Positions 37,201 to 60,512 of a stretch of 64,000 nt of DNA are shown in pieces. Every line of letters starts with the position of its first letter. Within the stretch, counting starts at the first letter, position 1. This DNA is from Giardia intestinalis. Lineage: Eukaryota. A model generated the notes under the pieces. It was given only the letters and a program-made list of their open reading frames with translations, did no database searches and was not told the origin of the DNA. The stretch lies in the NCBI GenBank assembly GCA_000002435.2, contig CM018789.1. One strand, written 5' to 3'. A program made the translations under genes and the position numbers.

Positions 37201-38222
37201 GTTTATCTCCAGCTGAAAAGAAGGACCTTGTATTAGGCGCAGAGCTGGTAATATCTAATGCTCCCGAACGCAGAACAAGCATCTTCTCACGACTTGTGTT
37301 ATCTGCCAACACTCTGGGCGAACGGATGCTTTCATCGACACAACCAAAAGAAGTCACTGACGTTAGATCACAAAGCCGACTCAGCAATTTGCATTTCGGT
37401 GAGCAATGGTTATGCCTCCAAAGAAACGCTATTTTCTGCAAACTATTTGCGGCATCACAACCCAAAGCAGATGCAGACACAGACTCATCTTTTTGTAGAT
37501 CGATTATTGACCAAGCTGTTGGTGCTACTACAGATAACAGTTCACGACTTTGTGTTATAATTGGGCAGGTCACAAAATCGCAACCAATCTTACCATGCTC
37601 AGGCCTGCAAGCACCAGTTGCTCTGACATTTGGATTGCAACATAGTGTTACTATGAATGGGAAGCCCCGAACACTTATTGAGCTACGACATATACGTGCT
37701 TATCTGGGAGGATGGGACTTCTTCTCGTACGCCGCGATACCAATAACGGAGTTATTACAAGATGTTAAGTTCACAGAGGAGAAAACAGGGATGAAGTTTT
37801 ACGGGGTACTGGTGGATTTTTCACGGGCAAAGCTTTTCCCAGATAAGCTACTAGAAAGTTCTACATTGAAAAAATCCAGTGTCGATATAATTTCTCTGGT
37901 AGGAAGAACAACCTCCGTATGCTTACTAACCTTCTATTTTGGGGCCGATAGAATAGAGAAGCAATCCAATTTTTGCACGTATTACCTAAAGCAATCAAAC
38001 ACTGACAAGACTGTGGATCAAAAGGAGTTCAGTCGTGTGCGAGTACACGTGGCATCTAATTACAGTCTAGAGTTTTATTGCATTGATCCCATTACCCAAT
38101 GCGAAAAGCCAGGTGGCATCGATCAATCAGTATCGTATCAATCATGTATTCAGTTCTCCAAGCTTTTTGCCTCAACGCAGATAGAATGGGAAGAATTGGA
38201 ATGCCATGTGGATCGAATATGA
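31293..38222 (+). CDS. PRP8: Pre-mRNA-processing-splicing factor 8 (Prp8), 2309 aa
   Basis: ATG at 31293. STKERKQSRFGKAFHLVRELTKFLKYMVDTHIAHRL...SVYRYKYKISNQIRQLK matches the highly conserved Prp8 stretch TTKERKKSRFGNAFHL.RE...D.H.QYRL...G.YRYKYKLM.QIR. The length is typical of Prp8. Confidence 0.9.
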   Translation: MQSLKPRLLQSVQPTLVGSTENSSFPSQPRSMARKLAAMGSLKFLVYAIRKALETMPQPWEAVRYVTVAHQKAGALTYILSKSTSSEHDLIRQWTRVCDSIPKDAAPPSYPIFDGTAPYMCYRDNLAFARPLPLFKTNAIIRFHRLKNLCADLSATQKILLSDSRRSLKSRDKFSFEQHLPSVFTNLSSFHGDDNFLMYQHVYLYHAYTEDQLLTYPALYYPISMHPPANLPIFLSPSPSAFCGTFLDRRKSNLMHINSSAMLSRSAQINEYSDAIQSSLQTSTYRSPSLLSPPLSSARKSFHKREIKSKSVTTILRTSPQFSIISNVDWLEAAQHLLAQAHDAMTLMLHRKNITFLSLDYNFNLTHTKVLSTKERKQSRFGKAFHLVRELTKFLKYMVDTHIAHRLLLIDYPTFLTGIHHLFLNIGTVTSVYRYKYKISNQIRQLKALGMLCGDVPFYHPLQCVMNSYLRGLSPLLEAYLSRLLARTAGIIDKDSGNSSRRVTHQRSLANQIVEQRNRYAGRFVSMYPQFTTRSAMTKLFLAHLAEAWLCWRAGMAYDQVYSQMSPEVADLVQAYVSERADLYTASIACTKKRIASNKWIAKSEHYKYCGRAGRQDMRELIVANAAYLCEPIQKDLRVSLGTVYSLAYLCITVAARVCACGSHIPFPSQEFEYDGKLLELALRDLREDVLSGSILTVADRQLLTLIEKATSLPHEFLIRIKEILLKKRTFDAVQIEYAEARTCVYPIYLTTGLTRVVDVYFTYYLSYQITSSPLHYLLFKRGFSSIDLSNPYSMELPAELTIRYCKHVHSTCSGLPATDGEGCFLVHMHLNTDSYFRGFNLHVIGKVISLLFDPVISSFLITRLSSSFYFKDMTYTAVRGVAPSFQFSHFLLTLLLSILDLTILLHYDEQPFSPTIILRVVTFIIAFAKDYRQSGVPLSQLWLRKACLEKGIDLSRLSIFYGTYKLLSYVRQGESLYLVLQEDRQANIESSKTTIMEQVMKSIPQSIACYISRQSSFCDNQTFYFVSLVNQPIRFEFMGYIILAKSIKDLGMSTNILHSVSATFIANFIYHANQLISSAVSTSFSKIIAKWNSLLLNCVIYYREALLQSPRFLRILMAYEEKVCNKIKQGLNSKMPNRFPNVIFYSPRELGGLGMLSVGSAGVYPSSEELNPKYPVAERSRRWDQKHQEVLLPSVIHFISPWADELNRSFLGYQRLLSIFCEFYNGRSPLFGAQTGFYVYEYDACGAEQQYSFKEISECLSSQWTGFAVSTFREAVFQALSQGSNSIEQQSPLEIAWANGCIPRLTTLIHYAKDLYCLLYRNPFLHHLAKGISIGNALTLKSWYNKKLLGSLYDLQGYKKIITAIFGGVEEILHHTLYPATDFSDYKSVVWSTATEHETGLAKRTNLTRARRQGLSQIPNRRFALWWSPTINRSSVYIGYRSQIDLTGVYMCGKLATLKTAYVSLFRGHAWPMIHSSLVKTLLAILQDAFRGLPLDTIKAESVHPRKSYHYHTSCADISVTWTRSLTVQQDYSIQIQKGSSEPHHNSQEESSGAHASSGEQVDSCTHLWWIDLHLTWGNVDTCTSLAKYSKDRHKYYTSDRSRGIYRSPHGIIICIDLLYREIAAYGSVPTIAIPAINKAISELLESLHSNTMMNMLADRIRTQLGLSSSSVHKLTDITPSSIGDLFTGKVIIVDDSLAYNFRMLNRDDTRASRVIINGFISIFNPQTGRLVLSVVHADTYAGQSRRASLSRWRTADLLTGYISSLPQALRPTTVVVCSRQSIDPIRTLLSVLNPPIVVRGTSLHWQFQNIRSMVICAEGQEGHIRGTVNEVIQLQQTSISLSIDLYAQFRGTDEQTGLILEGTPIQHFIAVLLMLQLANLSPLTIYKIISQSNLELKKSLPEAELAYRPTYASLTTKSMERLSTIGNLTDFVLHLPRAPYQQWCPVISAMTERVINESAKKLGVRSDCLSPAEKKDLVLGAELVISNAPERRTSIFSRLVLSANTLGERMLSSTQPKEVTDVRSQSRLSNLHFGEQWLCLQRNAIFCKLFAASQPKADADTDSSFCRSIIDQAVGATTDNSSRLCVIIGQVTKSQPILPCSGLQAPVALTFGLQHSVTMNGKPRTLIELRHIRAYLGGWDFFSYAAIPITELLQDVKFTEEKTGMKFYGVLVDFSRAKLFPDKLLESSTLKKSSVDIISLVGRTTSVCLLTFYFGADRIEKQSNFCTYYLKQSNTDKTVDQKEFSRVRVHVASNYSLEFYCIDPITQCEKPGGIDQSVSYQSCIQFSKLFASTQIEWEELECHVDRI

Positions 38223-39769
38223 GTAGAACAGTCATATTTGGCAAATCTAATGGACGAATCGTAGTTTGGCCTCAAGAGAACGGAATGCTGTGCCGCTGAA
38301 GCTCGGCGTCGGCGGAACCCAGCAGCCCAGAGTAAACCCCTCATCTTCCTCACACGCTCCGGGACACCAGACTGATCCGCAAGCCGCTGGCCACGCTGGA
38401 GTGCCCCGAGGCGGCCCAGGAGAGTGCGCGTGCTGAGGCCTGTCCATTAGACCCTCCTAGCAGCAGAGCGCCGTCGTGGCAGGAGAGCATGCCCCTTGCA
38501 TCGGTCGGTCGGTTGCTGAGACCCCTGGTGCTCTGTCTGTGAGAGGAGACTGCCCATGAGGGCCCTGTACGCTGCTCCCCTGCACCGACTGGCACAGCAG
38601 GGGGCCGGATGCCGAGGGACACCTCCAGAGTCTCGGGTCTCTACAGGACAGGACACACGGCAGAGACATCTGCATGCGGGCCGGGAGTCCTGCTCGGCCC
38701 CGTCCCTCGTCTGACGCCTTGGTCTCTCGGGAGCCCTGTCAGCACCACTGGAGGCAGGGGCTCTCCAGGAGCGCCGCACCGGGCCCGCATGGAGTGGATG
38801 GCCCCACAGCCACTGCACGGGCCTCTCGGGCAGGGGGTCTCTCTGCCACTGCAAGCTGCAGCAGCGTAAGGGTCGCCCCGTGTGCTGCCCTCTTGCCGTG
38901 GCGGGGCTTCAGGCATGCCATCGGGACTGTCCGACGGTCACCGGTTGAGCCCTGTGTGACAGCAACAGACGAGAAGACTGCCCCACAACGACATGCCCTC
39001 GCTGGAGGACTGTCAGCAGAGCGGAGGAAGCTACGGCCACTGGGGGAGTGAACGATCTCCGTGGGTCCAGGGGCGCTGCACTGCGGGCCTGTCGGCTCGG
39101 CCTCTGATGGGTACCACGATCACTCTGCCCGGTCTGGCAGATCACGAGGGGTCTGAGGCCGGCCTATTGGGAGGAGGACCGGGACCCTCGCTGATGGTTG
39201 AGCAGAATCACTACAGGGGGGCACGAGCTCGAGTAAGTGGGAGCCTTCTAGCAGGGTGCATGTCAACCGAGCGAGGAGAACGACATGGCAGTCATCAAGG
39301 AGCCATGACCTCTGAGCCTTCTGGGCTCTGCGCCGGGCCGGACATCAGCACAGCCCGCCTGCCGGTAGCACTGCCGCGGGGGTCTCCGTCGTGTGAATGC
39401 CTGGGGTGAGCCGCTTGGGCACGGAGACGGGCTGTGCGGCGCCCAAGAGTGGAAGATCGCCACGCTCTGGTGCTGTGGGCCGAGTCGAGACAGGGGCTCC
39501 AAGGTAGGGGTGGAACAGCGCTCCCCCCGTGTGCCGTGCTGGGTGGCCACAGACGGGCAGGGGCCGCTGGGGGCAGGCGTCGCCGTCGAGACAGAGGAAG
39601 GCCAGCCTCGAGCATGCCAGTGCCAGAGCGCATGGCAAGTGCACAAGGACACGGCTCCCCCCTCTTCCATCGGGGACGGCGGGCCGGGGGCTGAGAGGTG
39701 GCTCGGCACAGACGGTGGCATCAGGGTGCGTCCATGGCCGGCGCAGGGGCCACCGCAGAGGACCCTCTA

Positions 39770-41815
39770 ATGTTCCAACTGATACCCCTGTTCATGGCAA
39801 GCGCGCTCATGGCGCCTTGTCAGCCAGATGGGAATCACCTGACCACTTGCGCACACGAAAAGTGCGAGACGGTCGGGTCAGCCGAGATTTGTACCGAGTG
39901 CAAGGTCGGAGGCGTCCCGGTCGACGGCTTCTGCCGACCCTTCGGCTCCATCCAGGCCGCGGCGGCCGGGTGCACCAAAGCAGACGGGGCTGCTCTCGAC
40001 AAGATGACAGCAACCTGCGAGAAGTGCGGCGACGGGTACTTCCTCTTCATGGGCGGGTGCTACAAGACGAGCCTGTGGTCTGAAGTCTGCACAGCAGCCA
40101 GTAATGGAGTATGTACTACTTGTAATACAAAGAACGGCCTGTTCAAGAACCCGGCTGCAACAGTGACTCCTGGTAACGAGTGCATCCTGTGCTCCGATGC
40201 TACAGATAGAAACGGGGTCATGGGAGTGGAGAATTGTCTCAAGTGCACGGCGCCAGGTGGCAATACAGGAGCAGCCGCGTGCACTGCCTGCAAGGCTGGC
40301 TTTTATGGGTCCGGTCCATGCACAAAGTGTCATGACGATTGTGCTACTTGCAGTGGCGCAGCAAATAATCAGTGCACATCTTGTAAGGCTGGAAAGTACC
40401 TGAAGACCGATACTAACACTTGCGTAGATGCTGGTAGTTGTAATGGAAACACTTATGCTGATCCAGTGACAAGGACATGCAAGGATTCTGCAATAACTGA
40501 TTGCACCACGTGTGAGTACAACCCGGCAACTGGGGGCCCAAAGTGCACAGCCTGTGGTAACAGTAAGAAGGTGAAGACAGCCATCGACGGCGCCACAACG
40601 TGCGTGACGGTTGCATCCGAATGTGTGGATGAGAATCACTTTAAAGATGACGGTAACACTATGTGTGTGCTATGCAGTGATACCAGCGGGTCAGACCCAA
40701 ATAAAGGGGTAGCGCAGTGCAAGACATGTACTAAGAATGGAGCTAACAAGCCTGAATGCAAGACATGCCTCGAAGGGTATGTTCTGAAGGGGTCTGGTGC
40801 TGACGCCATTTGTGAGTCTTGTGGAAACAACTGTGCAGTGTGTACCGCAGCCAATGATATATCGACTTGTACAGGGTGCCTTCCCGGGTACTTCCTAAAA
40901 GCCGAGGGTGGAACAAAAGAGTGCGTCCCGTGTGATGACACAGCCAAAGGTGGTCGTGAAGGCTGTAGTCTATGTTCTAGCAACGGTGGATTTAAGTGCA
41001 CAGATTGTAAAGCGAACTACAGGAAGCAGTCTAATGGAGATGCAGGCGATGACTATACATGTGTGAAGACCTGCGAGGACCCTACTGTGTGTGGGGGGAC
41101 GTCTGGAGCCTGCGATGCCATAGTGATCGATGCTAATGGAAAGGAGCATTATTACTGTTCATACTGTGGAGAGACCAATAAGTTCCCCATTGATGGACTA
41201 TGTACTGATAACAAGGGAACAAATGCTGGGTGTACTGATCATACTTGCAGCTACTGTGCTGCCGGGTTCTTCCTGTACATGGGTGGCTGCTACAAGATTG
41301 ATACAGTACCAGGAAGCTATATGTGCTCCAAATCAACAACAGCAGGTGTCTGTGATACACCCAATGCCAACAATAGATTCTTCGTTGTCCCAAAGGCAAT
41401 AAGTGCCGAACAATCTGTGCTGGCTTGTGGCAACCCATTGGGCACAATTGCAGGCGGTAATGCCTACGTCGGAGTGGAGGGGTGCTCCCAGTGCACGGCC
41501 CCCGACGCTCGAGCTGATGGCGGCATGGCGGTTGCCACGTGCACGGCCTGCGAGGACGGCAAGAAGCCCGGCAAGAGCGGCACCGGGTGTGTGGCGTGCC
41601 CTGATGCTAACTGCAAGAGCTGCACGATGGATGACGTATGTGAAGAGTGTGCTGATGGGTTCAGTCTAGACAATGGTAAGTGTGTGTCTTCTGGCACTAA
41701 TAAGAGCGGCCTTTCTACCGGCGCCATCGCTGGCATCTCCGTCGCAGCCATCGTCGTCGTCGGGGGCCTCGTCGGCTTCCTCTGCTGGTGGTTCATCTGT
41801 CGGGGGAAGGCGTAA
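39770..41815 (+). CDS. Variant-specific surface protein (VSP), left copy of an inverted pair
   Basis: Cys-rich with many CXXC motifs, GGCY motifs, a single C-terminal TM and the ...GGLVGFLCWWFICRGKA tail. The track ORF starts on GTG at 39698. In-frame ATGs are at 39734 (MAGAG...) and 39770 (MFQLIPLFMASALMAPC, signal-peptide-like). I chose 39770. Confidence 0.85.
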   Translation: MFQLIPLFMASALMAPCQPDGNHLTTCAHEKCETVGSAEICTECKVGGVPVDGFCRPFGSIQAAAAGCTKADGAALDKMTATCEKCGDGYFLFMGGCYKTSLWSEVCTAASNGVCTTCNTKNGLFKNPAATVTPGNECILCSDATDRNGVMGVENCLKCTAPGGNTGAAACTACKAGFYGSGPCTKCHDDCATCSGAANNQCTSCKAGKYLKTDTNTCVDAGSCNGNTYADPVTRTCKDSAITDCTTCEYNPATGGPKCTACGNSKKVKTAIDGATTCVTVASECVDENHFKDDGNTMCVLCSDTSGSDPNKGVAQCKTCTKNGANKPECKTCLEGYVLKGSGADAICESCGNNCAVCTAANDISTCTGCLPGYFLKAEGGTKECVPCDDTAKGGREGCSLCSSNGGFKCTDCKANYRKQSNGDAGDDYTCVKTCEDPTVCGGTSGACDAIVIDANGKEHYYCSYCGETNKFPIDGLCTDNKGTNAGCTDHTCSYCAAGFFLYMGGCYKIDTVPGSYMCSKSTTAGVCDTPNANNRFFVVPKAISAEQSVLACGNPLGTIAGGNAYVGVEGCSQCTAPDARADGGMAVATCTACEDGKKPGKSGTGCVACPDANCKSCTMDDVCEECADGFSLDNGKCVSSGTNKSGLSTGAIAGISVAAIVVVGGLVGFLCWWFICRGKA

Positions 41816-42935
41816 GTAGCATCCACTTAGGTAGTAAACGCGTCACTGTACAGCCTACTGCTCTTTCACGATGCCAGTAGACCCTCAAAGCCCGGTTTTT
41901 CCTAAGATCTCACCCCTTCTATGCAGCGTGAAAGAGTAGAAAATCCAAAAATAAGCAGCGGGACCGCCCGGCATGTCTACCGCTCTTCTGCCCTGGAGCC
42001 AGCAGACGACGGCCCAGATGCCCCCGTTGTGATCGGGACCTGTGTGAGCCTTCCCGGCGGCGCCCCGGCCTGGCTGGCGCTCTAGTCTCCTCAACCAGCT
42101 CTGCGCGATCCGGCCCCCCGCCGAACCCTGTGGGCCACCGTACTTCTCCGTGCCTCAATAGCGTCCTCGTCGCCCGAGACCGGCCGGGACGCCCTGGCCG
42201 CTGCAGGAGAGGCGCGTCGAGCGATGATCCTCGACCGAGGCCGCCCCCAGCTCCATGGCCATCTGAACGTGCCCGCAGTGGCCGTGCCGCGGCAGTGGAT
42301 TAGCCCGAGGGCGACCCGTGCCGCCCGATCTACGACCCCTGTTTTTGGATTTCTGCGAAGCAAGGCCTAGTTCTGTCATAGGGCGGCTATAGTAATGGTT
42401 AGCATAGCCCGATGGATACAGAGCCGGAGAAGACGCGGACCGGATCTTGTGCTAACTGATGGCGTGCCGTCTACTGTCTACAGCGCAGAGGTGATGCGTA
42501 GACGCACCTGCCCCCGCTATAGGTGGTCCTTGCAGTACCAGACCCGGTAGAGTGGGCTGCCGTCAGGAGCCAGCACAGCGGAGGGCGCCATGTGCCGATA
42601 GGAGCGTGCCCGGTCGCCCCTGGTTACACCGTAAGCGACGCAAGGGCGGGTAGGCGCGGGTCCCACTGTAGCGACACGTGCAAGACACAGCCGCGCGTCA
42701 TCAGGGCCTCAGAGAGCACTGGCTATGATACGGAAGGGCTACAGCCAGCCCGTTCCAAAGAAGGGGAGCCACACAGGCCCGAGGATCACGTCTCCGGAGA
42801 AGGGAAGTTCTGTCCCGGTGGCCGAGATAATGAAAGGGCGATAACTGGAGTGCCCGCTGACCTGAGCCTGAACAGCTCGTGGCACGCATGCAAGGCGCTC
42901 ACTCTGGGACACAAGCGGACATCCGGTTCACGGCC
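39859..42935. repeat. Left arm of a large inverted duplication (~3.07 kb: VSP coding sequence from codon ~30 onward plus ~1.1 kb of 3' flank)
   Basis: The VSP proteins are identical from ...KCETVGSAEICTECK to CRGKA. Flanking junk ORFs in the track are identical between 41885-42951 and 45853-46878 on opposite strands. Manual reverse-complement comparison places identity between ~39859 and ~42935. Confidence 0.8.
41825..41839 (+). promoter_or_regulatory. VSP-type extended polyadenylation signal ACTTAGGTAGTAAAC
   Basis: It lies 10 nt after the stop of the VSP at 41815 and matches the known Giardia VSP 3' motif (ACTYAGRTAGTRAAY containing AGTRAAY). Confidence 0.7.
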
Positions 42936-45838
42936 TCGTGTGCTCCGCTAGCGGTGGCCTCCCCTTTGGTCCTGCTTCATAGCGGGCGAGGGCGGGCCTT
43001 TGTGTTCGTTTTACAAGGCTTCCACCTGACTCGACGGCAGTAGCCGTTGGCGCTCTGGCTCCACTGGCGGTCCTGATTCGGTGAGAGTCTATCTTGGCAA
43101 TAGGAAGTGGATGAGGCCGTGGCTCGCTATGAGGGAGCGTCGTTATTTGTCTTTGGTCGCTGCTTCCCCTGGGAGCGGATATGTCTTCTGTCACTGTGGC
43201 TCTCTGGAACTAGTGATAGTCGCCTCTGTTGCCCCTCGGTGTCCGTCCAACCGTGGTTCTGGGGTAGCACGCCTTCTCAGTCGCAGTCACTCTGGTCCCA
43301 CAGTGGGTCCAGTTGGTGATTGGAAATAGGCTGACAGGCGGCAGTTGCTGGGTATTCATTGGCTGCCACAGGACAGCGAGGGCCGGACAGAACTCTCGGT
43401 GCCCGCGGGGCCCTCCTGGCGTCTCTGGAGTGGGGAGCCGTCCATCCCATAGGTGGTTGAGAACGTCCTTGTGTCCCTGTCTTCTCACTGTGGTATCCCT
43501 CTGGTTGCTGGATGACACCCACGCCCACCGCCTTGCACTTGTGACGGGCTCTGCTCTGGTCGCCGGGCTGGTCTGATCTCCAGCCTGCGTTGCACTCCCC
43601 GAGACACGGAGGCAACGATCACACAGGGCCCCTAGTTGTCCCTCTGCACCAGTGGAGGAGAGCCCCTGTCTGTTGTCTACAATCATCCCATCCTCAGAGA
43701 GCCTGGCCTGGGCGGGCTGCCGTGCGGGCTCTGAGTGCGCCCAGCAGCACAGCCCTAAAGGTAGCCGGGTGGAGTGAATCATCGTGGGATGCACGTAAGG
43801 AGCGCACAGGTCCGGGGCGCCCGAACAGGCTCAGCCCTCGCACCGGCTCCTCCCCGGCCGCCTCAGTCGCGGCGCTAACAGGAAGACGCGTGTCCTGTTC
43901 GACGACCCGGCACACGGACCGACGGCCGGCGAATGCACATGGCAAGGTGGAATAAAAAGTTTGGAACGTCGGCGCTCGCGCGGATCGGGATGCGGCGTTC
44001 TCCAGGCTGGGAGGCCGTGCGTGCGGGCATTACCTTTAACATGTTCCTCACCACGGCCCCAGGCTGATGGGCGGCCGAGGCCTTGCCAGCGTCACGCACG
44101 CCTCTTGCCGGCATTGGGCCGCTCGGGATCGTACATAGGCAGGGCTGCAGAGGCCTTCCGCGGCTCCTGCGGGCAATAGTCTGCCACGGAGAGCACGCCC
44201 AGCTTGGGAGCTCCTCAGGATCACCGTGCAGATCATCGAGACCGGTTCGACGGGCCCCACGTTGAAGGAGGCGCACGGACCGGCGAGCGTGCCGTCTTTG
44301 CAGGCAGGCCCTCGCTGGCCGGGGTGGCGGGGCTCTCCTGTATCTCCGCCGGAGGACGCCCTATCTACTGGCAGCATTTCCACAGTTGCAACGCTACAGG
44401 GACGGGCTGCAGCTCTTCCGCAGGATCTCGTCGGACAGGCAGTTCGGCGTACTCTCACGTGCACTCGCAGGAGCTCCAGGGGCTGCTCCCCGCCCTCGTA
44501 GAATAGCACCCCGCACGCCCCAAAGCCAAATCGAAATGCAGCAGGTGCAGTCGACTCTTCTCGGGTTGTGGCGCTGATCCAATCAGACGCCGCGGCACGC
44601 CCCGAGCAGGCCTCGTCCAGCAGCGGGTGCTCTAGCCGCGCCCCTGAGGCAAGTCTGCTTCTGACCCCGTCCCTGTGCCGACCCCAGCGAGCCCCCGACG
44701 GCTCCGGAGAAGGAGCGCCTTGCGGAGCCCCCTACTGATCCCTCGGTGCAGGAGGATCCCCGGATTACCGACTTGCGTGCGGCAGGCGGCGGAGCACCCC
44801 AGGCCATCCTTACATCTACATGCCCAGCGAGCGCTGTAGCGGGCCGAGATGAAGCCGCGGGCGCCGATGCCGGGGCGCTGGCCACGGAGGCTGCGGCCCT
44901 ACAACCATGCGACCCCTTGGTTCGCGTTTTAGTTTTTGGGGTCCCAAGTTAGCGCCCCCGGAGCAGCACCGGCTGTACACTGTTCACTGCACTCGGTCGG
45001 TCGCATGGTGTAGCAGCTACGGCTCCTCTAATTACGGCGCTTGATGTGTTTACTACTGGGGGTGCTGCTCTCCGTTCTACGGGGTGGCAGGAGTGCTCCC
45101 GCGTGCACGGTAGTACCAGTGGACGCCCCTCAGCTGCCGGGCCGGAGCAGCTCTTGGATGGGTGGACCTATCTTCCTCCGTGCAGCCGTTCCTCGGGCCT
45201 AGTAGACGTGCTTTGCTGTGTCCCGCAGCCCGGATCCTTGCCTTCAGACGCCAGCACGGAACTCTCTAAATTTGTCCTCCTGCGGCGTCCTATGCTACCA
45301 TGCACACTTCGTTTTCATTAAGCCCTTAGGGTTGCAGTCCAGGACTACCGGCCCCCGCATCATCAGATATGGTTGCTGACTGCGGCCGCTTACGCAGTCG
45401 CAGCTGGTTCCGCACTGCCCCTGTATCGGTAGCCTTGGCCTGCATCGCCGGTGTGCGGCCCACTTTGCTCTGCGGGCATACCACACACAGTTACTAGCCT
45501 CGTGATGTGGTGCACCGCTGGGGCAGATAATAGCAGCAGCAATCCTGCAGCCCCGTGTGGTCGTCTGGCAGTGGATGCGAAGGTTTGCAGGCGGGAGCGG
45601 AGGGCCGGGGCTGCTCTTGCTCACGTCACCGGGCGCCGTGGTCAAGGGCTCCGGAGGCACGCCCAGCCCTCTGCTGGACGAGGATCGATGGGCCGCTCAG
45701 AGCCCCGCAAGCTGCGTCCAGGCTGGTATTAGGTGGCCCAATGACGTGGCGACGGGAGCTGTGAGGCGAGACCTGTCGCGCGCCGAGCGTCGGGCCATTG
45801 CTACACCGACTCCCCGAAGGGACACACTCAGCCCGGGG

Positions 45839-48800
45839 CCGGATGTCCGCTTGTGCCCCAGCGTGAGCGCCTCATGCGTGCCACGAGCTGTTCAGGCTCA
45901 GGTCAGCGGGCACTCCAGTTATCGCCCTTTCATTATCTCGGCCACCGGGACAGAACTTCCCTTCTCCGGAGACGTGATCCTCGGGCCTGTGTGGCTCCCC
46001 TTCTTTGGAACGGGCTGGCTGTAGCCCTTCCGTATCATAGCCAGTGCTCTCTGAGGCCCTGATGACGCGCGGCTGTGTCTTGCACGTGTCGCTACAGTGG
46101 GACCCGCGCCTACCCGCCCTTGCGTCGCTTACGGTGTAACCAGGGGCGACCGGGCACGCTCCTATCGGCACATGGCGCCCTCCGCTGTGCTGGCTCCTGA
46201 CGGCAGCCCACTCTACCGGGTCTGGTACTGCAAGGACCACCTATAGCGGGGGCAGGTGCGTCTACGCATCACCTCTGCGCTGTAGACAGTAGACGGCACG
46301 CCATCAGTTAGCACAAGATCCGGTCCGCGTCTTCTCCGGCTCTGTATCCATCGGGCTATGCTAACCATTACTATAGCCGCCCTATGACAGAACTAGGCCT
46401 TGCTTCGCAGAAATCCAAAAACAGGGGTCGTAGATCGGGCGGCACGGGTCGCCCTCGGGCTAATCCACTGCCGCGGCACGGCCACTGCGGGCACGTTCAG
46501 ATGGCCATGGAGCTGGGGGCGGCCTCGGTCGAGGATCATCGCTCGACGCGCCTCTCCTGCAGCGGCCAGGGCGTCCCGGCCGGTCTCGGGCGACGAGGAC
46601 GCTATTGAGGCACGGAGAAGTACGGTGGCCCACAGGGTTCGGCGGGGGGCCGGATCGCGCAGAGCTGGTTGAGGAGACTAGAGCGCCAGCCAGGCCGGGG
46701 CGCCGCCGGGAAGGCTCACACAGGTCCCGATCACAACGGGGGCATCTGGGCCGTCGTCTGCTGGCTCCAGGGCAGAAGAGCGGTAGACATGCCGGGCGGT
46801 CCCGCTGCTTATTTTTGGATTTTCTACTCTTTCACGCTGCATAGAAGGGGTGAGATCTTAGGAAAAACCGGGCTTTGAGGGTCTACTGGCATCGTGAAAG
46901 AGCAGTAGGCTGTACAGTGACGCGTTTACTACCTAAGTGGATGCTACTTACGCCTTCCCCCGACAGATGAACCACCAGCAGAGGAAGCCGACGAGGCCCC
47001 CGACGACGACGATGGCTGCGACGGAGATGCCAGCGATGGCGCCGGTAGAAAGGCCGCTCTTATTAGTGCCAGAAGACACACACTTACCATTGTCTAGACT
47101 GAACCCATCAGCACACTCTTCACATACGTCATCCATCGTGCAGCTCTTGCAGTTAGCATCAGGGCACGCCACACACCCGGTGCCGCTCTTGCCGGGCTTC
47201 TTGCCGTCCTCGCAGGCCGTGCACGTGGCAACCGCCATGCCGCCATCAGCTCGAGCGTCGGGGGCCGTGCACTGGGAGCACCCCTCCACTCCGACGTAGG
47301 CATTACCGCCTGCAATTGTGCCCAATGGGTTGCCACAAGCCAGCACAGATTGTTCGGCACTTATTGCCTTTGGGACAACGAAGAATCTATTGTTGGCATT
47401 GGGTGTATCACAGACACCTGCTGTTGTTGATTTGGAGCACATATAGCTTCCTGGTACTGTATCAATCTTGTAGCAGCCACCCATGTACAGGAAGAACCCG
47501 GCAGCACAGTAGCTGCAAGTATGATCAGTACACCCAGCATTTGTTCCCTTGTTATCAGTACATAGTCCATCAATGGGGAACTTATTGGTCTCTCCACAGT
47601 ATGAACAGTAATAATGCTCCTTTCCATTAGCATCGATCACTATGGCATCGCAGGCTCCAGACGTCCCCCCACACACAGTAGGGTCCTCGCAGGTCTTCAC
47701 ACATGTATAGTCATCGCCTGCATCTCCATTAGACTGCTTCCTGTAGTTCGCTTTACAATCTGTGCACTTAAATCCACCGTTGCTAGAACATAGACTACAG
47801 CCTTCACGACCACCTTTGGCTGTGTCATCACACGGGACGCACTCTTTTGTTCCACCCTCGGCTTTTAGGAAGTACCCGGGAAGGCACCCTGTACAAGTCG
47901 ATATATCATTGGCTGCGGTACACACTGCACAGTTGTTTCCACAAGACTCACAAATGGCGTCAGCACCAGACCCCTTCAGAACATACCCTTCGAGGCATGT
48001 CTTGCATTCAGGCTTGTTAGCTCCATTCTTAGTACATGTCTTGCACTGCGCTACCCCTTTATTTGGGTCTGACCCGCTGGTATCACTGCATAGCACACAC
48101 ATAGTGTTACCGTCATCTTTAAAGTGATTCTCATCCACACATTCGGATGCAACCGTCACGCACGTTGTGGCGCCGTCGATGGCTGTCTTCACCTTCTTAC
48201 TGTTACCACAGGCTGTGCACTTTGGGCCCCCAGTTGCCGGGTTGTACTCACACGTGGTGCAATCAGTTATTGCAGAATCCTTGCATGTCCTTGTCACTGG
48301 ATCAGCATAAGTGTTTCCATTACAACTACCAGCATCTACGCAAGTGTTAGTATCGGTCTTCAGGTACTTTCCAGCCTTACAAGATGTGCACTGATTATTT
48401 GCTGCGCCACTGCAAGTAGCACAATCGTCATGACACTTTGTGCATGGACCGGACCCATAAAAGCCAGCCTTGCAGGCAGTGCACGCGGCTGCTCCTGTAT
48501 TGCCACCTGGCGCCGTGCACTTGAGACAATTCTCCACTCCCATGACCCCGTTTCTATCTGTAGCATCGGAGCACAGGATGCACTCGTTACCAGGAGTCAC
48601 TGTTGCAGCCGGGTTCTTGAACAGGCCGTTCTTTGTATTACAAGTAGTACATACTCCATTACTGGCTGCTGTGCAGACTTCAGACCACAGGCTCGTCTTG
48701 TAGCACCCGCCCATGAAGAGGAAGTACCCGTCGCCGCACTTCTCGCAGGTTGCTGTCATCTTGTCGAGAGCAGCCCCGTCTGCTTTGGTGCACCCGGCCG

Positions 48801-48903
48801 CCGCGGCCTGGATGGAGCCGAAGGGTCGGCAGAAGCCGTCGACCGGGACGCCTCCGACCTTGCACTCGGTACAAATCTCGGCTGACCCGACCGTCTCGCA
48901 CTT
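45839..48903. repeat. Right arm of the inverted duplication (reverse complement of the left arm)
   Basis: As for the left arm. The inner boundary was mapped by hand to ~45839 (shared ...ccggatgtccgcttgtg...), with small indel differences near the inner edges. Confidence 0.8.
46924..46938 (-). promoter_or_regulatory. VSP extended polyadenylation signal (ACTTAGGTAGTAAAC on the minus strand)
   Basis: Reverse complement of gtttactacctaagt, immediately 3' of the right-copy VSP stop. It is part of the duplicated arm. Confidence 0.7.
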
Positions 48904-48993
48904 ATTGACCTGACAGGTCACTATGTGGTCTCCGTCTTGCTGACAAGGTGCTGCAAAAGAACTCACCACAATATAAAAGGCTGTTAATAACAT
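46948..48993 (-). CDS. Variant-specific surface protein (VSP), right copy of the inverted pair (681 aa from the first ATG)
   Basis: The track ORF 46948-49035 starts on GTG. The first in-frame ATG is at 48991-48993, giving the signal peptide MLLTAFYIVVSSFAAPC. The sequence is identical to the left copy from residue ~30 to the CRGKA terminus. The N-terminal ~30 aa is related but diverged (APCQQDGDHIVTCQVNKCE versus APCQPDGNHLTTCAHEKCE). Confidence 0.85.
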   Translation of the reverse strand: MLLTAFYIVVSSFAAPCQQDGDHIVTCQVNKCETVGSAEICTECKVGGVPVDGFCRPFGSIQAAAAGCTKADGAALDKMTATCEKCGDGYFLFMGGCYKTSLWSEVCTAASNGVCTTCNTKNGLFKNPAATVTPGNECILCSDATDRNGVMGVENCLKCTAPGGNTGAAACTACKAGFYGSGPCTKCHDDCATCSGAANNQCTSCKAGKYLKTDTNTCVDAGSCNGNTYADPVTRTCKDSAITDCTTCEYNPATGGPKCTACGNSKKVKTAIDGATTCVTVASECVDENHFKDDGNTMCVLCSDTSGSDPNKGVAQCKTCTKNGANKPECKTCLEGYVLKGSGADAICESCGNNCAVCTAANDISTCTGCLPGYFLKAEGGTKECVPCDDTAKGGREGCSLCSSNGGFKCTDCKANYRKQSNGDAGDDYTCVKTCEDPTVCGGTSGACDAIVIDANGKEHYYCSYCGETNKFPIDGLCTDNKGTNAGCTDHTCSYCAAGFFLYMGGCYKIDTVPGSYMCSKSTTAGVCDTPNANNRFFVVPKAISAEQSVLACGNPLGTIAGGNAYVGVEGCSQCTAPDARADGGMAVATCTACEDGKKPGKSGTGCVACPDANCKSCTMDDVCEECADGFSLDNGKCVSSGTNKSGLSTGAIAGISVAAIVVVGGLVGFLCWWFICRGKA

Positions 48994-50271
48994 TGAGGCC
49001 CATCGAGGCACTGCTAGCGTAAGCAGACATTTCACCAGTGACTCTATTCTCTAAGTAGCCATTCAGTAACGCACTTGTTAGATATCGCGTCAAAGATGCC
49101 AAAGACCCAAAGAGCTGATCCGGTGCCAACCTTCCCGTTACGACAAAACATAGATTTAGCTATCCTCTCAGATAGCACGTAGCCCGCCCTCTGGCCAGCT
49201 AGTTGAGGACTAGCCTTGCTAGGAGAGTTTCGCGCACAAGAGCATTTCATTGATGGCAGTATCAGTGGCCGCCCTGCGTATCGGCTGGATGATCACCCTC
49301 GGCCACGACTCGAGGAACCGGGCACCCGACCAGAGGCATAGCAACGGTTTGGTTTGTCTACGGCCCTACTACCCCTCGCCAGCAGGGAGCGGGCAGCCCG
49401 AATAGCATCAAGCCTCCCCAGTGTTGCCTCTTCTCTAGTGCGCGGAGGTACCCCTCGTGTCTGGGAGACGCTGTGGTGCGGCTGGCTAGAGCCGGTCAAG
49501 TGGGGAACCACCATTTTAGGGGTGCTGGGACATCATTGCGTGCCCGAAGGCTGTCCACCGTAGCGGAACCATCCCAGATAGGAACAGGTGAGGCACCAGT
49601 TCCTTTAGAGGGGCCTGCGACCGGCGAAGGACGGTCTCTAAAGTGGTCAGTAGGGCCCTTCAGTGCGTGGGAGTCGACAGGGGGCGGGTTCACCAATAGT
49701 CTGTGGTGCAAGCGGGTTGGGTCGTATGACAGACGGCGTCCCTGAGCAGGGGGACAGTCACAGTGCGTCGCGATAGAACGTAGCCATCCTCCACGGGGCA
49801 TCGCTCCTGCCGGGCTTCAACAGTGGAATCTCGGGGGGACAGTGTTCGAGGCATGCACTGGTGACCCGTGGCTCGGGGCTGCTGGACATTGCACGGCTGG
49901 CTCCATCGGGTCGCTGGTCAGGCATTCAGGAGAATCTAGGAGTCCCTTGGCAGACCTTGTGACTGGCACAGCAGGAGAGCTGGTCGCCAGGAAACCCTCA
50001 CATCACAGCGAAGAGCGAAACATGACCGCCGTGTAGCCGTTACTATGGTATGCCTTGCAACACAAGGGAGGAAGCTTACATCGATCGGTCCGTTTCACAG
50101 CCGGCCAGTCACACGAAGGTGGAATCAGCACGGCCCCACCTCTCAACGCAGGCCCACATGAAGGGTAATCTCTGTCAGTGTGTCATACAGCATAGGCAAG
50201 CGTCATGAAAGGGTATAAGCGCGGTAAGTGGAGCTGCCATAACCTTGCGTGACAGGGCTGCGCGGGCCGCA

Positions 50272-51894
50272 ATGTTCTATGCATTTTTGCTGACCGGTCT
50301 CGCACTCGAGCTAGTACGGGCAGCGCAAGCCGGAGACGAATGCGAAGAGGTAGCTAGCAGTGAGCCCAACACTTGCAAGGCCTGTAGCGCCGTCGTCAAC
50401 GGCAAGAAATACTGCTCGCAGTGCAACGGCGGTGGGTCTCAATCTGCCCCAACGGACGGAGTGTGCTCAGCAGACAATAACGAGTGTACCCGGAAGCAAG
50501 ATGGGAAGTGCACACAGTGCGCTAATAAGTCCTTCATGTACAAGGGCGGATGCTACAAGGATAGCCAGGCACCTGGCAACACGATGTGTGAAACAGCAAA
50601 TGCTGGAGTGTGCACACAGGCTAAGGAAGGATACTTCCTGCCGCCGGGCACTGATAACGCACACGACTCGGTTGTTTCGTGCGGGGATACAACGGGCGTG
50701 ACGCTTACTGGCGATAAGAAGTACACGGGCGTGGCCGAGTGCGTCACCTGTACTCAGCCAGGGCAACTATCAATTGGTGGCACTAAGGCCGCCATATGCA
50801 CCAAATGTGCCGCAGACCTCTACTTGAAAATAGATAGAGGCGTTATGGAGTGCGTCGCGGAATCAGGATGCGGCGAGGGCTTCTTCCCGACAATCGTCGA
50901 CGGTGTTAAGAAGTGTGCTGGCTGTAGTGAAGCTGGAAGCGGTGGCATAGAAGACTGCGAACTATGCATACCTAGAGCACCTGCTCCTGAAGCAGGAGTC
51001 AAGGTCACCTGCTCTAAGTGTCATGCTAGTAAGAAGGTCAGCCCCCTCAAGGACGAGTGCATGGACAACTGCCCCGCCGGGACATACGACAAGCAAAACG
51101 TCTGCACCCCCTGCCACTCGTCGTGTGCCAGCTGCCAGACCGACGACAAGGAGACCTCCTGCACGGCCTGCTACCCTGGACACTCCCTTCTGTATGAGGC
51201 CAACGGAGCGACTGGGAGGTGCGTCAAGGAATGCACTGGTGCGTTCATTACCAACTGTGCAGACGGGCAGTGCACGGCTGACGTGGGGGGCGCGAAGTAC
51301 TGTGCCCAGTGCAAGGAGGGATATGCCCCAATCGACGGAGTGTGCACAGCAGTAAAAATTGGGAGAGACGCGAGTGTATGCACAGCTGCAAGCGGGAAGT
51401 GCACGGCGTGCACAGGAGCATACGCCCTCATTTCTGGTGGATGCTATGGTGTGGCGAAGCTTCCTGGAAAGGCTGTCTGCACGGCAGCTAACAATGGAGA
51501 GTGCACTACTTGCGCGAACGGACAACAGCCCAGTGGAAAGGTCTGTCCGACATGTCCAGCTGGCTGCTCAAAATGTACAGGAAGTGCTCCTTCACAGCAG
51601 TGTTCGGAGTGCTTCCCGGGATACTATAAGTCCGGAACAAAGTGCGTAGCATGCGACAAGGATGATGGAAGCATTAAAGGCGTACCAAACTGTCTGAGCT
51701 GCAAGGAGCCAGCCAGTTCTTCCGGGGCTGTTACTTGCTATGTCAAGACAGACGGCACTAACAATGGCGGAAGCATGAACAAGAGCGGCCTTTCTACCGG
51801 CGCCATCGCGGGCATCTCCGTCGCTGTCATCGCTGTCGTGGGGGGTCTCGTGGGCTTCCTCTGCTGGTGGTTCATATGTAGAGGGAAGGCATAG
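50272..51894 (+). CDS. Variant-specific surface protein (VSP), 540 aa from the first ATG
   Basis: The track ORF starts on TTG at 50245; the ATG at 50272 gives MFYAFLLTGLALELVRAAQA (signal peptide). Cys-rich CXXC repeats, GGCY motifs, a C-terminal TM and ...GFLCWWFICRGKA. It is followed at 51897-51911 by ACTTAGGTAGTGAATAC. Confidence 0.85.
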   Translation: MFYAFLLTGLALELVRAAQAGDECEEVASSEPNTCKACSAVVNGKKYCSQCNGGGSQSAPTDGVCSADNNECTRKQDGKCTQCANKSFMYKGGCYKDSQAPGNTMCETANAGVCTQAKEGYFLPPGTDNAHDSVVSCGDTTGVTLTGDKKYTGVAECVTCTQPGQLSIGGTKAAICTKCAADLYLKIDRGVMECVAESGCGEGFFPTIVDGVKKCAGCSEAGSGGIEDCELCIPRAPAPEAGVKVTCSKCHASKKVSPLKDECMDNCPAGTYDKQNVCTPCHSSCASCQTDDKETSCTACYPGHSLLYEANGATGRCVKECTGAFITNCADGQCTADVGGAKYCAQCKEGYAPIDGVCTAVKIGRDASVCTAASGKCTACTGAYALISGGCYGVAKLPGKAVCTAANNGECTTCANGQQPSGKVCPTCPAGCSKCTGSAPSQQCSECFPGYYKSGTKCVACDKDDGSIKGVPNCLSCKEPASSSGAVTCYVKTDGTNNGGSMNKSGLSTGAIAGISVAVIAVVGGLVGFLCWWFICRGKA

Positions 51895-51896
51895 GT

Positions 51897-51911
51897 ACTT
51901 AGGTAGTGAAT
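51897..51911 (+). promoter_or_regulatory. VSP extended polyadenylation signal ACTTAGGTAGTGAAT
   Basis: It starts 3 nt after the TAG stop of the VSP at 51894 and has the same motif as the other two VSPs. Confidence 0.7.
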
Positions 51912-51951
51912 ACTATGAGTGATGATAGTGGGGTGATAGTGTGATGATAGT

Positions 51952-53046
51952 GTGATATGCACAAAGGCTAGTGATGGAGTATGCACTACTTGTAAGACAG
52001 ATAACGGCCTGTTCAAGAACCCGGCTGCACCTCAGAAGCCTGGTAATGAGTGCATCCTCTGTCATGATGCCACGGGAGCAGATGGATATATGGGAGTCGA
52101 GGGCTGCGCTACATGCACCAAGTCAGACAGTAATAAGGGGGCAGCCACGTGTACTGCCTGTCAAGCAGGGTACTACAAGGACTCTCAGGCATGTAGCAAG
52201 TGTGATGGTACTTGTCTGACCTGCGATGGAAGTGGTCAGAATCAGTGTACATCGTGCCCAGAGGGGAAGTACTTGAAGGGTGATAAGACTTGCGTAACTA
52301 GTGATCAATGCACGAGCACCGTTTATCCAGACCCAGAGTCTGGAACGTGCAAGGAATGCAGTACGATAGATCAAGCATGTACTACCTGTAAGTACAATGC
52401 GACTGTCAGTAAGCCCCAGTGCACTGCCTGTAATAACAATAAGAAGGTGAAGACGGCCATCGATGGCATCACAACATGCGTCGATATAAGCTCTGGCTGC
52501 GAGGATGCTGATCACTTCAAGGCAGATGGTGATGCTGCGTGTGTCTTGTGCAGCGATACCAGCGGATCAGACCCAAAGAACAAAGGCATTGCTGGCTGTA
52601 AGGCTTGCACGAAGACAGCAAGTGCCAATCCAACCTGCTCGGAGTGCCTGGAGGGATACAAAAGTACCGGAGTTGGTTCAGTAACATGCACCCCCTGTCA
52701 CGCCAACTGTGCCACATGCTCAGCTGAAACTGCCGAGGATAAGTGTCTGACCTGCAAGACTGGGTTCTTCCTCGTTGAAGTTACACAACCGGCAGGAAAG
52801 TGTGTCTCATGTAGTGACACAAACAATGGGGGCATCGATGGATGTGTGGATACCTTACAGCATCACACCCGTCCAACTCAGCCATGCACAGGAGTCCCAT
52901 TCTTCCCCCAGGATCTGGTCCAGTGCTCAGCTGGTTCGGATGCCCTACCGCACCTTGTTGGAGACTGCATTGAAGCTACTGATCCGGCGGTGCTCTGGAC
53001 TCACTACCTACCATCAGATTGTCTTTGTTTTCGCATATTTACATAG
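51952..53046 (+). pseudogene. Truncated VSP fragment (internal Cys-rich region only: no ATG, no signal peptide, no TM or CRGKA tail)
   Basis: The frame opens on GTG directly after an in-frame TAG and has no in-frame ATG before residue ~46. It aligns to the middle of the 39770 VSP (CTTCNTKNGLFKNPAATVTPGNECILCSDAT... versus CTTCKTDNGLFKNPAAPQKPGNECILCHDAT...). It ends in non-VSP sequence (...LPSDCLCFRIFT) without the conserved tail. Confidence 0.6.
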
Positions 53047-53247
53047 TTGATGGCCATGGTCTTTCTCCGTTGTCCATTGAGGAATGAGACAATCAAATGA
53101 TACTTGATATGAACCTTAAAGTGTTTCATGTGAATTTCTGAATGGTTGTCTTGTTCTGCTATTAGCGAGTATATCATCTAATGCCCTTCAAAGAGCTCTT
53201 CGCATACAACAGCTGATAGGAAGTGTATACCAAAATACAAAGTTTAC

Positions 53248-54597
53248 ATGTCTGAACGCTACACCTCTTTGGCTCCAGCATATGCTGTGTATTACGAGAA
53301 CTATTACCCATATGAAGAAATTGTTGAGTGGCTCACGTACCATGGAAGCGTCCTCACTCAAAGGCGTGAATGGTCTTATGAAATAATCACAGCCACCGAT
53401 GAGACCTTTGTCACCAGATTTCGCGAGATCTCAGATGCAGAACAGCTCAGATCTATACTTCGCTTTTCCTCGAAGACATTAGAGGACTTTAAGCTCAAGC
53501 TTGACATCGGACCCGTTTATACGAGTGATATGAGTCAACGCAAAACGCAACCGGAGTTTGCACCATGTGAGCGAGAGCTTGTGTTCGATATTGACGCAGG
53601 TGACTATGATAGAATTCGTACCTGTTGTGCCGGACCAGCCATGTGTGACAAGTGCTGGCGCTTCATGGAACTGGCAGTCCCTCTCCTTATCCTCTTTTGT
53701 CGTGTTCACGGTTTCAACGACTACTTCTTTGTCTTTTCTGGACGGCGGGGATTGCATTGCTGGATATGCGATGCTCGTGCACGGAAGCTTTCTAAGGACT
53801 CTCGCAAAAGCATGGTCGACGCATTCAATATCATTAGCATAGATACAGGAAGTGTTCTTCGGGAGTCATACGATCACTCCAATTGGCTTTGTCGCTTAAT
53901 TCACGATCACATTTGTATACGTTTCTTTTCCCAAATGCTTGAAGAACAGAATTGGCTTGGTGGAGGTGTTGAAGAGCACTTAGCTAAGTACTCTAAGGAA
54001 AGCCTTCTGACAGAGCTACGACGGGCTGATTCTGCGCTGTTTTCGTCAGCGCCGATCTTTTTCTTTCTTCATATTACCTTATGCATTTACTCTTGCTTAG
54101 TTGCAGGAGGGTATCCTGTTACAACTGGTTCTGCCAAAAATTCAGACGGGCGATTTGCATCTCTTCTTACTACATTCATCGGAAAACTGACTATGATAAC
54201 ATCATCTGCCGCTCGCTGGACTGAGCTTGAGCTACTAATTAAGGATTATGATCCAATTCTTGCTGCCATCAGGGTGTACTACACATATCCCCGATTTGAT
54301 GTAGAGGTCACTCGCGGGATGAACCATCTTCTAAAGATTCCATTCTCGGTTCACTCCAAGTCTCGTAAAATATCAGTCCCCTTTCCACCCGCACCAATCC
54401 TCAAAACCTATTCCATTGATACAGGAGTTCTTCAACTGGGACCCTTAGACACCGATGACTCCTTGCCAAGGTTTCTGCCATCTGATGCACCCACTGTGGA
54501 CGATCTTTTGAGCGGACACACAGAGCACTACTTCAAGTACCGCACATATTTCTCCCGAATTGTTCATCAGGTGACAGCGCCATATGATGGAACTTAA
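53248..54597 (+). CDS. PRI1: DNA primase small (catalytic) subunit, eukaryotic p48/Pri1 type
   Basis: ATG confirmed. RELVFDIDAGDYDRIRTCCAGPAMCDKCWRFM...FFVFSGRRGLHCWICDARARKLS matches the conserved primase catalytic core (ELVFDIDMTDYD..R.CC....IC.KCW........SGRRGVHCWVCD...R.L). There is a Giardia-specific insertion in the C-terminal half. Confidence 0.85.
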   Translation: MSERYTSLAPAYAVYYENYYPYEEIVEWLTYHGSVLTQRREWSYEIITATDETFVTRFREISDAEQLRSILRFSSKTLEDFKLKLDIGPVYTSDMSQRKTQPEFAPCERELVFDIDAGDYDRIRTCCAGPAMCDKCWRFMELAVPLLILFCRVHGFNDYFFVFSGRRGLHCWICDARARKLSKDSRKSMVDAFNIISIDTGSVLRESYDHSNWLCRLIHDHICIRFFSQMLEEQNWLGGGVEEHLAKYSKESLLTELRRADSALFSSAPIFFFLHITLCIYSCLVAGGYPVTTGSAKNSDGRFASLLTTFIGKLTMITSSAARWTELELLIKDYDPILAAIRVYYTYPRFDVEVTRGMNHLLKIPFSVHSKSRKISVPFPPAPILKTYSIDTGVLQLGPLDTDDSLPRFLPSDAPTVDDLLSGHTEHYFKYRTYFSRIVHQVTAPYDGT

Positions 54598-56660: not shown

Positions 56661-56684
56661 TTTATTTAAATCATTAAATTCACC

Positions 56685-57458: not shown

Positions 57459-57467
57459 TACAAGCAG

Positions 57468-58475: not shown

Positions 58476-58583
58476 TTTATTGACACGCTACAGTCCTAAC
58501 AGACATTATTGAACGGAAAGCCAATCCATTGGCCGGCAGATTGAGGTAGGGCAGGCTTTAATCACAAGTGAATCAAAAAAATC

Positions 58584-60485: not shown

Positions 60486-60512
60486 TTTATCAGATAGTCT
60501 ATGATATAAGAG

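Follow-up and report, generated by a model that had tools for sequence, protein, structure and literature searches.

In Giardia intestinalis the genes that encode variant-specific surface proteins (VSPs), together with those of high-cysteine membrane proteins (HCMPs) make up islands of higher G+C content and atypical sequence signature, set between stretches in which gene order is conserved, and a few of these genes keep conserved positions (Jerlstrom-Hultqvist et al., 2010; PMC3091692). The surroundings of VSP genes are gene-poor, 19 duplicated VSP pairs have been listed, and array members without a start codon are annotated as pseudo-VSPs (Xu et al., 2020; PMC7000408). Adam et al. (2010; PMC2996952) described 14 identical inverted VSP pairs, linear arrays and an extended upstream non-coding region, found the initiator element PyAatgTT in 41% of the vsp genes of isolate WB, and cited VSPs with nearly identical 5' regions (Yang and Adam, 1995, as cited in PMC2996952). 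AI/AII gene-conversion tracts were found to be enriched in G+C and in VSPs in a 2025 study (PMC12669663). Here we describe a locus of this kind in a window of 64,000 nt, by which we mean the whole stretch of DNA that was analysed (one strand of contig CM018789.1, assembly GCA_000002435.2). The window comes from G. intestinalis WB clone C6, assemblage A1, as identified by the exact match of its primase open reading frame (ORF) to XP_001704225.1 / KAE8301286.1. The region between its genes for Prp8 and for the small subunit of DNA primase (38223-53247) is very probably a G+C-rich, gene-poor variable-gene island, that is, a site which holds cysteine-rich surface-protein genes, differs in contents from lineage to lineage and is remodelled in the way proposed below. 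It is a region of an already known kind in the Giardia genome: all of its structural themes have been published and its departures from them are details.

The sequence-only reading had taken this region for an island rich in G+C and poor in ORFs, set off by abrupt changes of composition on both sides, with three VSP genes and a VSP fragment as its only convincing genes, and in these points it is borne out. The island has a G+C content of 0.584, against 0.454 on its left (1-38222) and 0.453 on its right (53248-64000); 1-kb windows inside it average 0.586 and reach 0.674, whereas those outside average 0.455 (sd 0.032) with a maximum of 0.588. The steps are sharp, from 0.41 to 0.59 at ~38200 and from 0.53 to 0.44 at ~52900, and an earlier hand count of 41 G or C among the 60 letters of 38401-38460 was exact. 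The three complete genes, named VSP-1, VSP-2 and VSP-3 from left to right, and the fragment were all recognized by Pfam, with initiators and CRGKA tails as further support for the complete ones. The gene-free stretches 38223-39769 (1547 nt, G+C 0.663), 41816-46947 (5132 nt, 0.634) and 48994-50271 (1278 nt, 0.581) are indeed as unusually long as had been claimed: the remaining intergenic gaps of the window measure 9-447 nt, with a patch of 1249 nt at 24599-25847 as the sole exception. These remaining gaps are mostly A+T-rich (G+C 0.11-0.44), apart from that patch and the gap 19604-20050, which have a G+C content of 0.55-0.56. The maximum of G+C at the locus thus falls in non-coding DNA (0.58-0.66), the VSP genes having only 0.51-0.56.

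All the tests that we were able to run agree that the G+C-rich DNA separating the genes is non-coding. The short ORFs with R-, P-, G- and A-rich products that cover it had been ascribed to compositional noise, and rightly: in each stop-to-stop ORF of this DNA the G+C content is equal at codon positions 1, 2 and 3, the longest of these ORFs measure 150-227 aa, and dinucleotide shuffles give longest ORFs of similar length and similar numbers of ORFs with 100 aa or more. A period-3 signal is lacking, the median power being 0.5-0.9, as in random sequence, against 20.5 in the positive control, an assemblage B gene rich in G+C at third codon positions (GC3). The six-frame Pfam scan of 38223-39769, 41816-45851 and 48994-50271 at E<=1 detected no remnant of a reverse transcriptase or endonuclease; its sole match, with an E-value of 0.057, was of low complexity, fell far short of its cut-off and is attributable to chance. 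The longest ORF of the G+C-rich DNA (44051-44731, minus strand, 227 aa) found no match, not even to itself, among 1.84 billion representative proteins. Neither rRNA nor any other family appeared in the Rfam scan of 37500-54000 at E<=1, the two matches obtained being at chance level. Additionally, no tandem repeats were found in the G+C-rich DNA and no telomere repeats in the island, and the G+C-rich segments are similar neither to one another nor to the other G+C-rich patches of the window (E<1e-3).

The comparison with other lineages indicates how variable this site is. We compared the interval between Prp8 and primase with those of the assemblage A2 isolate DH (deposited assembly GCA_000498715.1; locus L002), of the assemblage B isolates BAH15c1 (L006) and GS (L008), of the assemblage E isolate P15 and of G. 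muris (L005, CM016927.1). In DH the interval is 3.7 kb long and contains G+C-rich upstream DNA like that of WB, a single short VSP and the truncated VSP fragment that is also present in WB. In this upstream DNA the identity to WB is 94.6% and 91%, a clearly greater divergence than in the last 1.2 kb of Prp8 (37000-38222), which are 97-100% identical. The short DH VSP has 304 aa counted from its ATG; over the first ~95 of these it is orthologous to VSP-1. WB positions ~40064-51778, that is ~11.7 kb including the inverted repeat described below, have no counterpart in DH. A simple recombination deletion between VSP-1 and VSP-3 as the origin of the DH arrangement was ruled out, since the DH VSP has in its 3' half just 33% protein identity to VSP-3 and 50% to VSP-1. 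Right of the missing segment, the VSP 3' end and the fragment (51778-53199 against L002:8584-10000) are 77% identical between WB and DH, while the right-hand block 51778-64000 is 96.3% identical overall and the adjoining housekeeping DNA 96-98%. The VSP-like sequence of the fragment ends at ...GGIDGCVDTL in both isolates, where the DH frame stops and the WB ORF continues for ~60 residues; this would fit a truncation of old date, with rapid change or conversion since then.

In assemblage B the interval measures 7.2 kb and is occupied by one cysteine-rich ORF, with 2081 aa in BAH15c1 (L006:3637-9882) and a called length of 1473 aa in GS (L008:2134-6555). This gene of 6.2 kb has a G+C content of 0.64 and a GC3 of 0.88-0.91, against a GC3 of 0.34-0.38 in its neighbours. 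It carries the Pfam label VSP and has a VSP-like C-terminal domain, but its tail reads ...WWFLIRGKKGSQ... followed by ~45 residues, not CRGKA; because of this long non-CRGKA tail it is HCMP-like. The P15 contig breaks off 3 kb from primase on the upstream side, and the assemblage E comparison thus covers the primase side only; these 3 kb contain a VSP on the opposite strand, a VSP 3' remnant and ~0.9 kb with a G+C content of 0.61-0.70. The G+C-rich DNA of the interval shows no similarity between assemblages A, B and E in blastn or tblastn. The G. muris primase is neighboured by a kinase and unannotated genes instead of Prp8 or Met-tRNA synthetase, and of the genomes compared, G. intestinalis alone showed the order Prp8, variable site, primase, Met-tRNA synthetase.

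The sequence-only reading had seen in the island a lineage-specific insertion into a syntenic housekeeping block, and this claim stands in part. The ~11.7 kb absent from DH agree with it; the interval itself, however, holds surface-protein genes in A2 and B too, and in E on the side of primase, so that Prp8 and primase, whose adjacency in other assemblages had been proposed as a check, are not tightly adjacent in either A2 or B. The proposed look at G. muris is uninformative, given its different primase neighbours. The variable site is therefore older than the divergence between assemblages A and B, its contents being lineage-specific, and E gives the same picture on the primase side. These observations also bear on the notion that the island is mobile or foreign DNA inserted in the WB lineage, such as the remains of a GilM, GilT or GilD retrotransposon, rDNA spacer sequence or DNA acquired by horizontal transfer. 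The segment missing from DH would fit such an origin, as would the fact that head-to-head VSP pairs can enclose reverse-transcriptase remnants, although this is reported for only some of them, four in WB (PMC7000408). We nevertheless consider it very improbable: the six-frame Pfam scan at E<=1 showed no reverse transcriptase, endonuclease or other domain in the non-coding segments, no rRNA or other Rfam family, telomere repeat or homologue of the longest ORF was found, and the site is occupied in A2, B and, on the primase side, E as well.

The assemblage B gene raises another explanation, namely that the G+C-rich DNA of WB consists of decayed GC3-rich genes for cysteine-rich (HCMP-like) proteins, disrupted by the insertion or duplication of VSP cassettes. 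The B interval is filled by an HCMP-like ORF with the same overall G+C content as the non-coding DNA of WB, and surface-protein genes do turn over at this site. However, when the B gene was used as a query, blastn and tblastn matched only VSP genes, and tblastn with the B protein and 120 VSP-family proteins gave no better scores on the G+C-rich segments than on shuffled sequence, except for a frame just upstream of VSP-1. The flat period-3 profile and the lack of Pfam matches speak against decayed genes as well, and so does the substitution balance given below, which shows no relaxation toward 0.45. Thus we regard this explanation as quite unlikely.

The exceptional frame upstream of VSP-1 matched the N-terminus of an over-extended DH VSP, and it was through this match that a paralogue of the VSP-1 cassette came to light. 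On a different DH contig (L011), 2162 nt are 87% identical to window positions 38322-40448, which comprise nearly the whole left non-coding segment and the 5' third of VSP-1. Thus the left segment is not unique DNA but recurs upstream of another DH VSP, which goes part of the way to the match with a known repeat family that the sequence-only reading had named as evidence against it. Identity between WB and this paralogue is 90.8% in the non-coding part (L011:8924-10372) and 75.5% in the coding part. The two DH VSP models concerned (L002:7411-8700, 429 aa; L011:10001-12547, 848 aa, labelled 'partial') begin far upstream of the true ATG (MFQLIPLF...), and this is an annotation artefact of stop-poor G+C-rich non-coding DNA. 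In a three-way alignment of WB with its orthologue and its paralogue from DH, all copies are roughly equidistant over 38379-38774, the DH paralogue is the outlier over 38775-39070, and from 39170 into the signal peptide both DH copies agree against WB. Such a blockwise mosaic is the pattern expected of gene conversion between loci, to which the alignment thus points. Changes polarised by parsimony over 38379-39769 amount to 53 from A or T to G or C (W>S) and 71 in the opposite direction (S>W), among 426 W and 891 S sites. From this spectrum follows an equilibrium G+C of ~0.61, against 0.45 in the surrounding genome, and therefore the G+C richness would be maintained and not decaying toward 0.45.

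The tail-to-tail pair VSP-1/VSP-2 is carried by a perfect inverted repeat with arms of 3052 nt. The left arm spans VSP-1 from codon 31 onward together with 1096 nt of its 3' flank, in which a motif resembling a poly(A) signal, AGTAAAC, lies at 41833-41839, 18 nt past the stop codon. Compared with other VSP loci, only the first 20-26 nt of this flank after the stop are common to them. At the inner arm ends a 2-nt indel is followed by ~50 nt of ~82% identity, after which the similarity is gone, and no inverted similarity was found within the central spacer (42912-45851). At the outer ends the identity breaks off within the N-terminal coding sequence, the two genes being different in codons 1-30 and in the DNA upstream of them. 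Therefore VSP-1 and VSP-2, which are 97% identical as a whole, represent the same mature antigen with different signal peptides and different upstream DNA. This makes the pair atypical, as it would put two promoters and two signal peptides at the disposal of one antigen. The distance is 5132 nt from ORF to ORF and 2940 nt from arm to arm.

One would argue that such a perfect repeat is an assembly artefact, for example from a chimeric long read, and that one real VSP copy exists. The accession of VSP-2 (XP_037901545.1) first appears with the long-read assembly of 2020, short-read contigs break near the island, and the ORF distance lies outside the 2526-2813 nt of 12 listed pairs. However, 2.9 kb of unique DNA lie between the arms, and the copies differ in their 5' ends, signal peptides and upstream DNA, unlike the two halves of a fold-back chimera. 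Additionally, such pairs are documented in WB, among them the cloned vsp1267 inverted pair (Mowatt et al., 1991; PMC2996952). We therefore find an artefact hardly credible. The 12 tail-to-tail pairs of WB in Table 2 of PMC7000408 have uniform ORF distances (2526-2813 bp), which hints at a common spacer structure. The window pair was considered as the nearest entry of that table (chromosome 1, 682 aa, 2649 bp), and this was rejected in view of the distance of 5132 nt found here.

Accordingly, we return to the reading of the locus as a variable-gene island. Its growth, shrinkage and remodelling would proceed through duplication of whole VSP cassettes with their flanks, and ectopic gene conversion among VSP loci would remodel it further. 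Gene conversion from arm to arm, which is known in large palindromes such as the ampliconic palindromes of the human Y chromosome, may keep the inverted repeat identical. The likeness to palindromes and to GC-biased conversion would be one of mechanism only, suggested by arms that are perfect where the flanks diverge by 5% between A1 and A2, and by a balance that favours W>S changes. The high G+C of the non-coding DNA would be upheld by a local process of substitution and conversion instead of being a fading relic, and GC-biased gene conversion is its likeliest cause in our view. The island would act as a reservoir and expression site for genes of antigenic variation.

Several points weigh against this reading. 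The substitution spectrum comprises 124 polarised changes from three sequences, in which point substitutions are mixed with imported conversion tracts. Regional GC-biased conversion should lift the GC3 of the VSP genes at least equally, yet the island VSP coding sequences have a GC3 of only 0.55-0.61, below the G+C of the surrounding non-coding DNA (0.58-0.66). No second copy was found of the arm flank, the central spacer or the head-to-head spacer, in a search that excluded the rest of the WB genome. The assemblies of DH, P15 and GS are older drafts, in which repeats may be collapsed or contigs broken at them; 454 sequencing was used for P15 and for the first GS draft (PMC3091692, PMC2723961). 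Finally, the data fit an expansion in WB as well as a contraction in DH.

It could also be that the flanks and the inverted repeat have a function of their own, either in the control of VSP expression and silencing or as a promoter-free insulator, with read-through giving a 3-kb hairpin dsRNA that feeds RNAi-type silencing. The upstream DNA is indeed better conserved between the paralogous loci than the coding part (90.8% against 75.5%), long G+C-rich flanks of unrelated sequence recur at independent VSP loci, the three complete VSPs retain the initiator despite having no A+T-rich upstream region, and perfect arms of 3052 nt could give dsRNA if transcribed across. However, the G+C-rich DNA of the interval is not conserved in sequence between A, B and E, and the conservation of the upstream DNA is equally explicable by diversifying selection and conversion acting on the coding part. 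There is also no excess of RNA structure and no Rfam family: the fold z-scores are +0.4 for the central spacer and +2.5 for 38322-39769, which are thus not more stable than their shuffles. The AGTAAAC motif 18 nt past the stop argues against routine read-through. Thus we hold a function of this kind to be rather unlikely, and selective maintenance of the G+C-rich VSP flanks as an insulator or chromatin domain for silent or switchable VSPs, with the tail-to-tail repeat as a source of hairpin dsRNA, to be unlikely.

The features of the island and of its flanks are collected in Table 1.

Table 1. Features of the Prp8-primase interval and its flanking genes in the window (positions in nt)
Feature	Position	Strand	Remarks
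Prp8, left housekeeping flank	31293-38222	+	Six Prp8 Pfam domains; G+C 0.44; GC1-3 0.49/0.42/0.41
Prp8 3' flank, unique	38223-38321		Rise in G+C starts here; outside the L011 cassette homology, which begins at 38322
G+C-rich (~0.66) upstream segment of the VSP-1 cassette	38322-39769	+	1.45 kb; DH orthologue (L002) and paralogue (L011)
VSP-1, 681 aa	39770-41815	+	KAE8301282.1 / XP_001704836.2; Pfam VSP 4e-43; TAatgTT; 27 CXXC; CRGKA
Left arm of perfect inverted repeat	39860-42911		3052 nt; 100% complementary
VSP 3' flank within left arm	41816-42911		AGTAAAC near start, then G+C-rich non-coding DNA
Central unique spacer of inverted pair	42912-45851		2940 nt; with arm flank (41816-45851) G+C 0.636
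Right arm of inverted repeat	45852-48903		Same repeat search
VSP-2, 681 aa	46948-48993	-	KAE8301283.1 / XP_037901545.1; Pfam; CAatgTT; 27 CXXC; CRGKA
Head-to-head spacer VSP-2/VSP-3	48994-50271		1.28 kb; G+C 0.58; non-coding
VSP-3, 540 aa	50272-51894	+	KAE8301284.1 / XP_001704227.1; Pfam VSP 2e-85; CAatgTT; 19 CXXC; CRGKA
Truncated VSP (pseudo-VSP or cassette)	51952-53046	+	Pfam VSP 6e-9; 17 CXXC
A+T-rich stretch upstream of primase, right island edge	53047-53247		G+C 0.37; 75-78% conserved in E and B
DNA primase small subunit, right housekeeping flank	53248-54597	+	Pfam; XP_001704225.1 / KAE8301286.1, exact

The four VSP ORFs score 148, 147, 288 and 35.7 bits with PF03302 and all pass its cut-off of 31.4. 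The three complete VSPs have hydrophobic N-termini, from which their signal peptides were judged, and tails ending in ...CWWFICRGKA. Their starts (39770, 48993 on the minus strand and 50272) all lie within the VSP initiator consensus PyAatgTT, and this element is kept in 3/3 of them in spite of the missing A+T-rich upstream region. VSP-3 falls into a 90%-identity cluster with VSP AS9/AS11/AS12. Together with the fragment it makes a two-member linear array with a gap of 57 nt (51895-51951); the fragment (51952-53046) lacks an ATG and a signal peptide, and it has neither a transmembrane segment nor a CRGKA tail. In the gap between VSP-3 and the fragment, at 51921-51956, the 11-nt unit GATGATAGTGG is repeated in tandem in 3.3 copies, and a related sequence rich in GTGATAGA occurs in the corresponding gap of DH. 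The protein accessions KAE8301282, KAE8301283, KAE8301284 and KAE8301286 run consecutively with one gap. Therefore the reference annotation has no protein-coding gene between the three complete VSPs and not more than one ahead of primase; the number missing between KAE8301284 and KAE8301286 presumably belongs to the VSP fragment. The Met-tRNA synthetase gene of the window is also supported by Pfam.

Long G+C-rich non-coding flanks are not peculiar to this island, as they were also present at 3/3 other VSP loci fetched via VSP homologues. In DH, 3 kb with a G+C content of 0.61-0.65 lie upstream of an array of three VSPs (L009), and the flank at L011 has 0.63-0.70; in P15 the 3' flank at the contig end (L010) reaches 0.71-0.76. 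Apart from the L011 cassette, these three loci have only ~20 nt after the stop in common with the window. In L009:7000-10000 the period-3 power rises to 8.3 in one 300-nt window and has a median of 1.8, above that of the WB non-coding segments, and this DNA may hold a decayed coding remnant. Within our window, the gene-free patch 24599-25847 has a G+C content of 0.56 with peaks of 0.62-0.63 and lies in VSP-free surroundings between the divergent ORFs 20051-24598 (minus strand) and 25848-27350 (plus strand, TPH domain). It gave no six-frame Pfam match, its ORFs do not exceed those of shuffles, and it has no similarity to the island. Therefore long G+C-rich non-coding DNA is not confined to VSP loci. 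The G+C content also reaches 0.63 over the 3' end of an annexin-domain gene (18287-19603) and is 0.55 in the 447-nt gap that follows it.

As the locus lies in the annotated WB reference genome, it carries little weight as a discovery. A useful detail is that its G+C maximum is found in non-coding DNA which is apparently near compositional equilibrium. Furthermore, the Prp8-primase interval, as compared between A1, A2, B and the primase side of E, offers a natural experiment for the turnover of VSP and HCMP genes.

When set beside the islands of PMC3091692, the locus resembles them in having kilobases above 50% G+C in 1.5-kb windows, in containing VSPs and in interrupting the order of housekeeping genes, and it shares with the regions of both PMC3091692 and PMC7000408 a low coding density and contents that differ among assemblages. 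Unlike in PMC3091692, where the islands are credited to their genes, the G+C peak here is located in non-coding DNA; and unlike the non-syntenic islands of that study, the position itself is common to A1, A2 and B, and to E on the primase side. The upstream DNA and 5' coding sequence common to two loci, with divergence farther in, follow the tendency of VSPs with shared 5' regions, the shared non-coding 5' part having 1.45 kb and 66% G+C in our case. Similarly, VSP-3 and the fragment follow the published linear arrays with gaps of ~60 bp, since VSP-3 has an extended upstream region of 1.28 kb and an initiator and the next VSP is ATG-less after 57 nt; unlike those arrays, this one has two members only, and its downstream member is also devoid of a transmembrane segment and CRGKA tail. 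The pair VSP-1/VSP-2 agrees with the inverted pairs of Adam et al. (2010) and Xu et al. (2020) in its tail-to-tail orientation, its arms of 100% identity including 3' flank, the abrupt arm ends and the unique spacer. In contrast to the identical inverted pairs, its ORFs are 97% identical, its arms end in N-terminal coding sequence and its 5' ends differ. Its identical 3' flank of 1096 nt compares with 139-729 nt in the published inverted pairs, and its ORF distance of 5132 nt with 2190-3847 (Adam et al., 2010) or, for tail-to-tail pairs, 2526-2813 (Xu et al., 2020).

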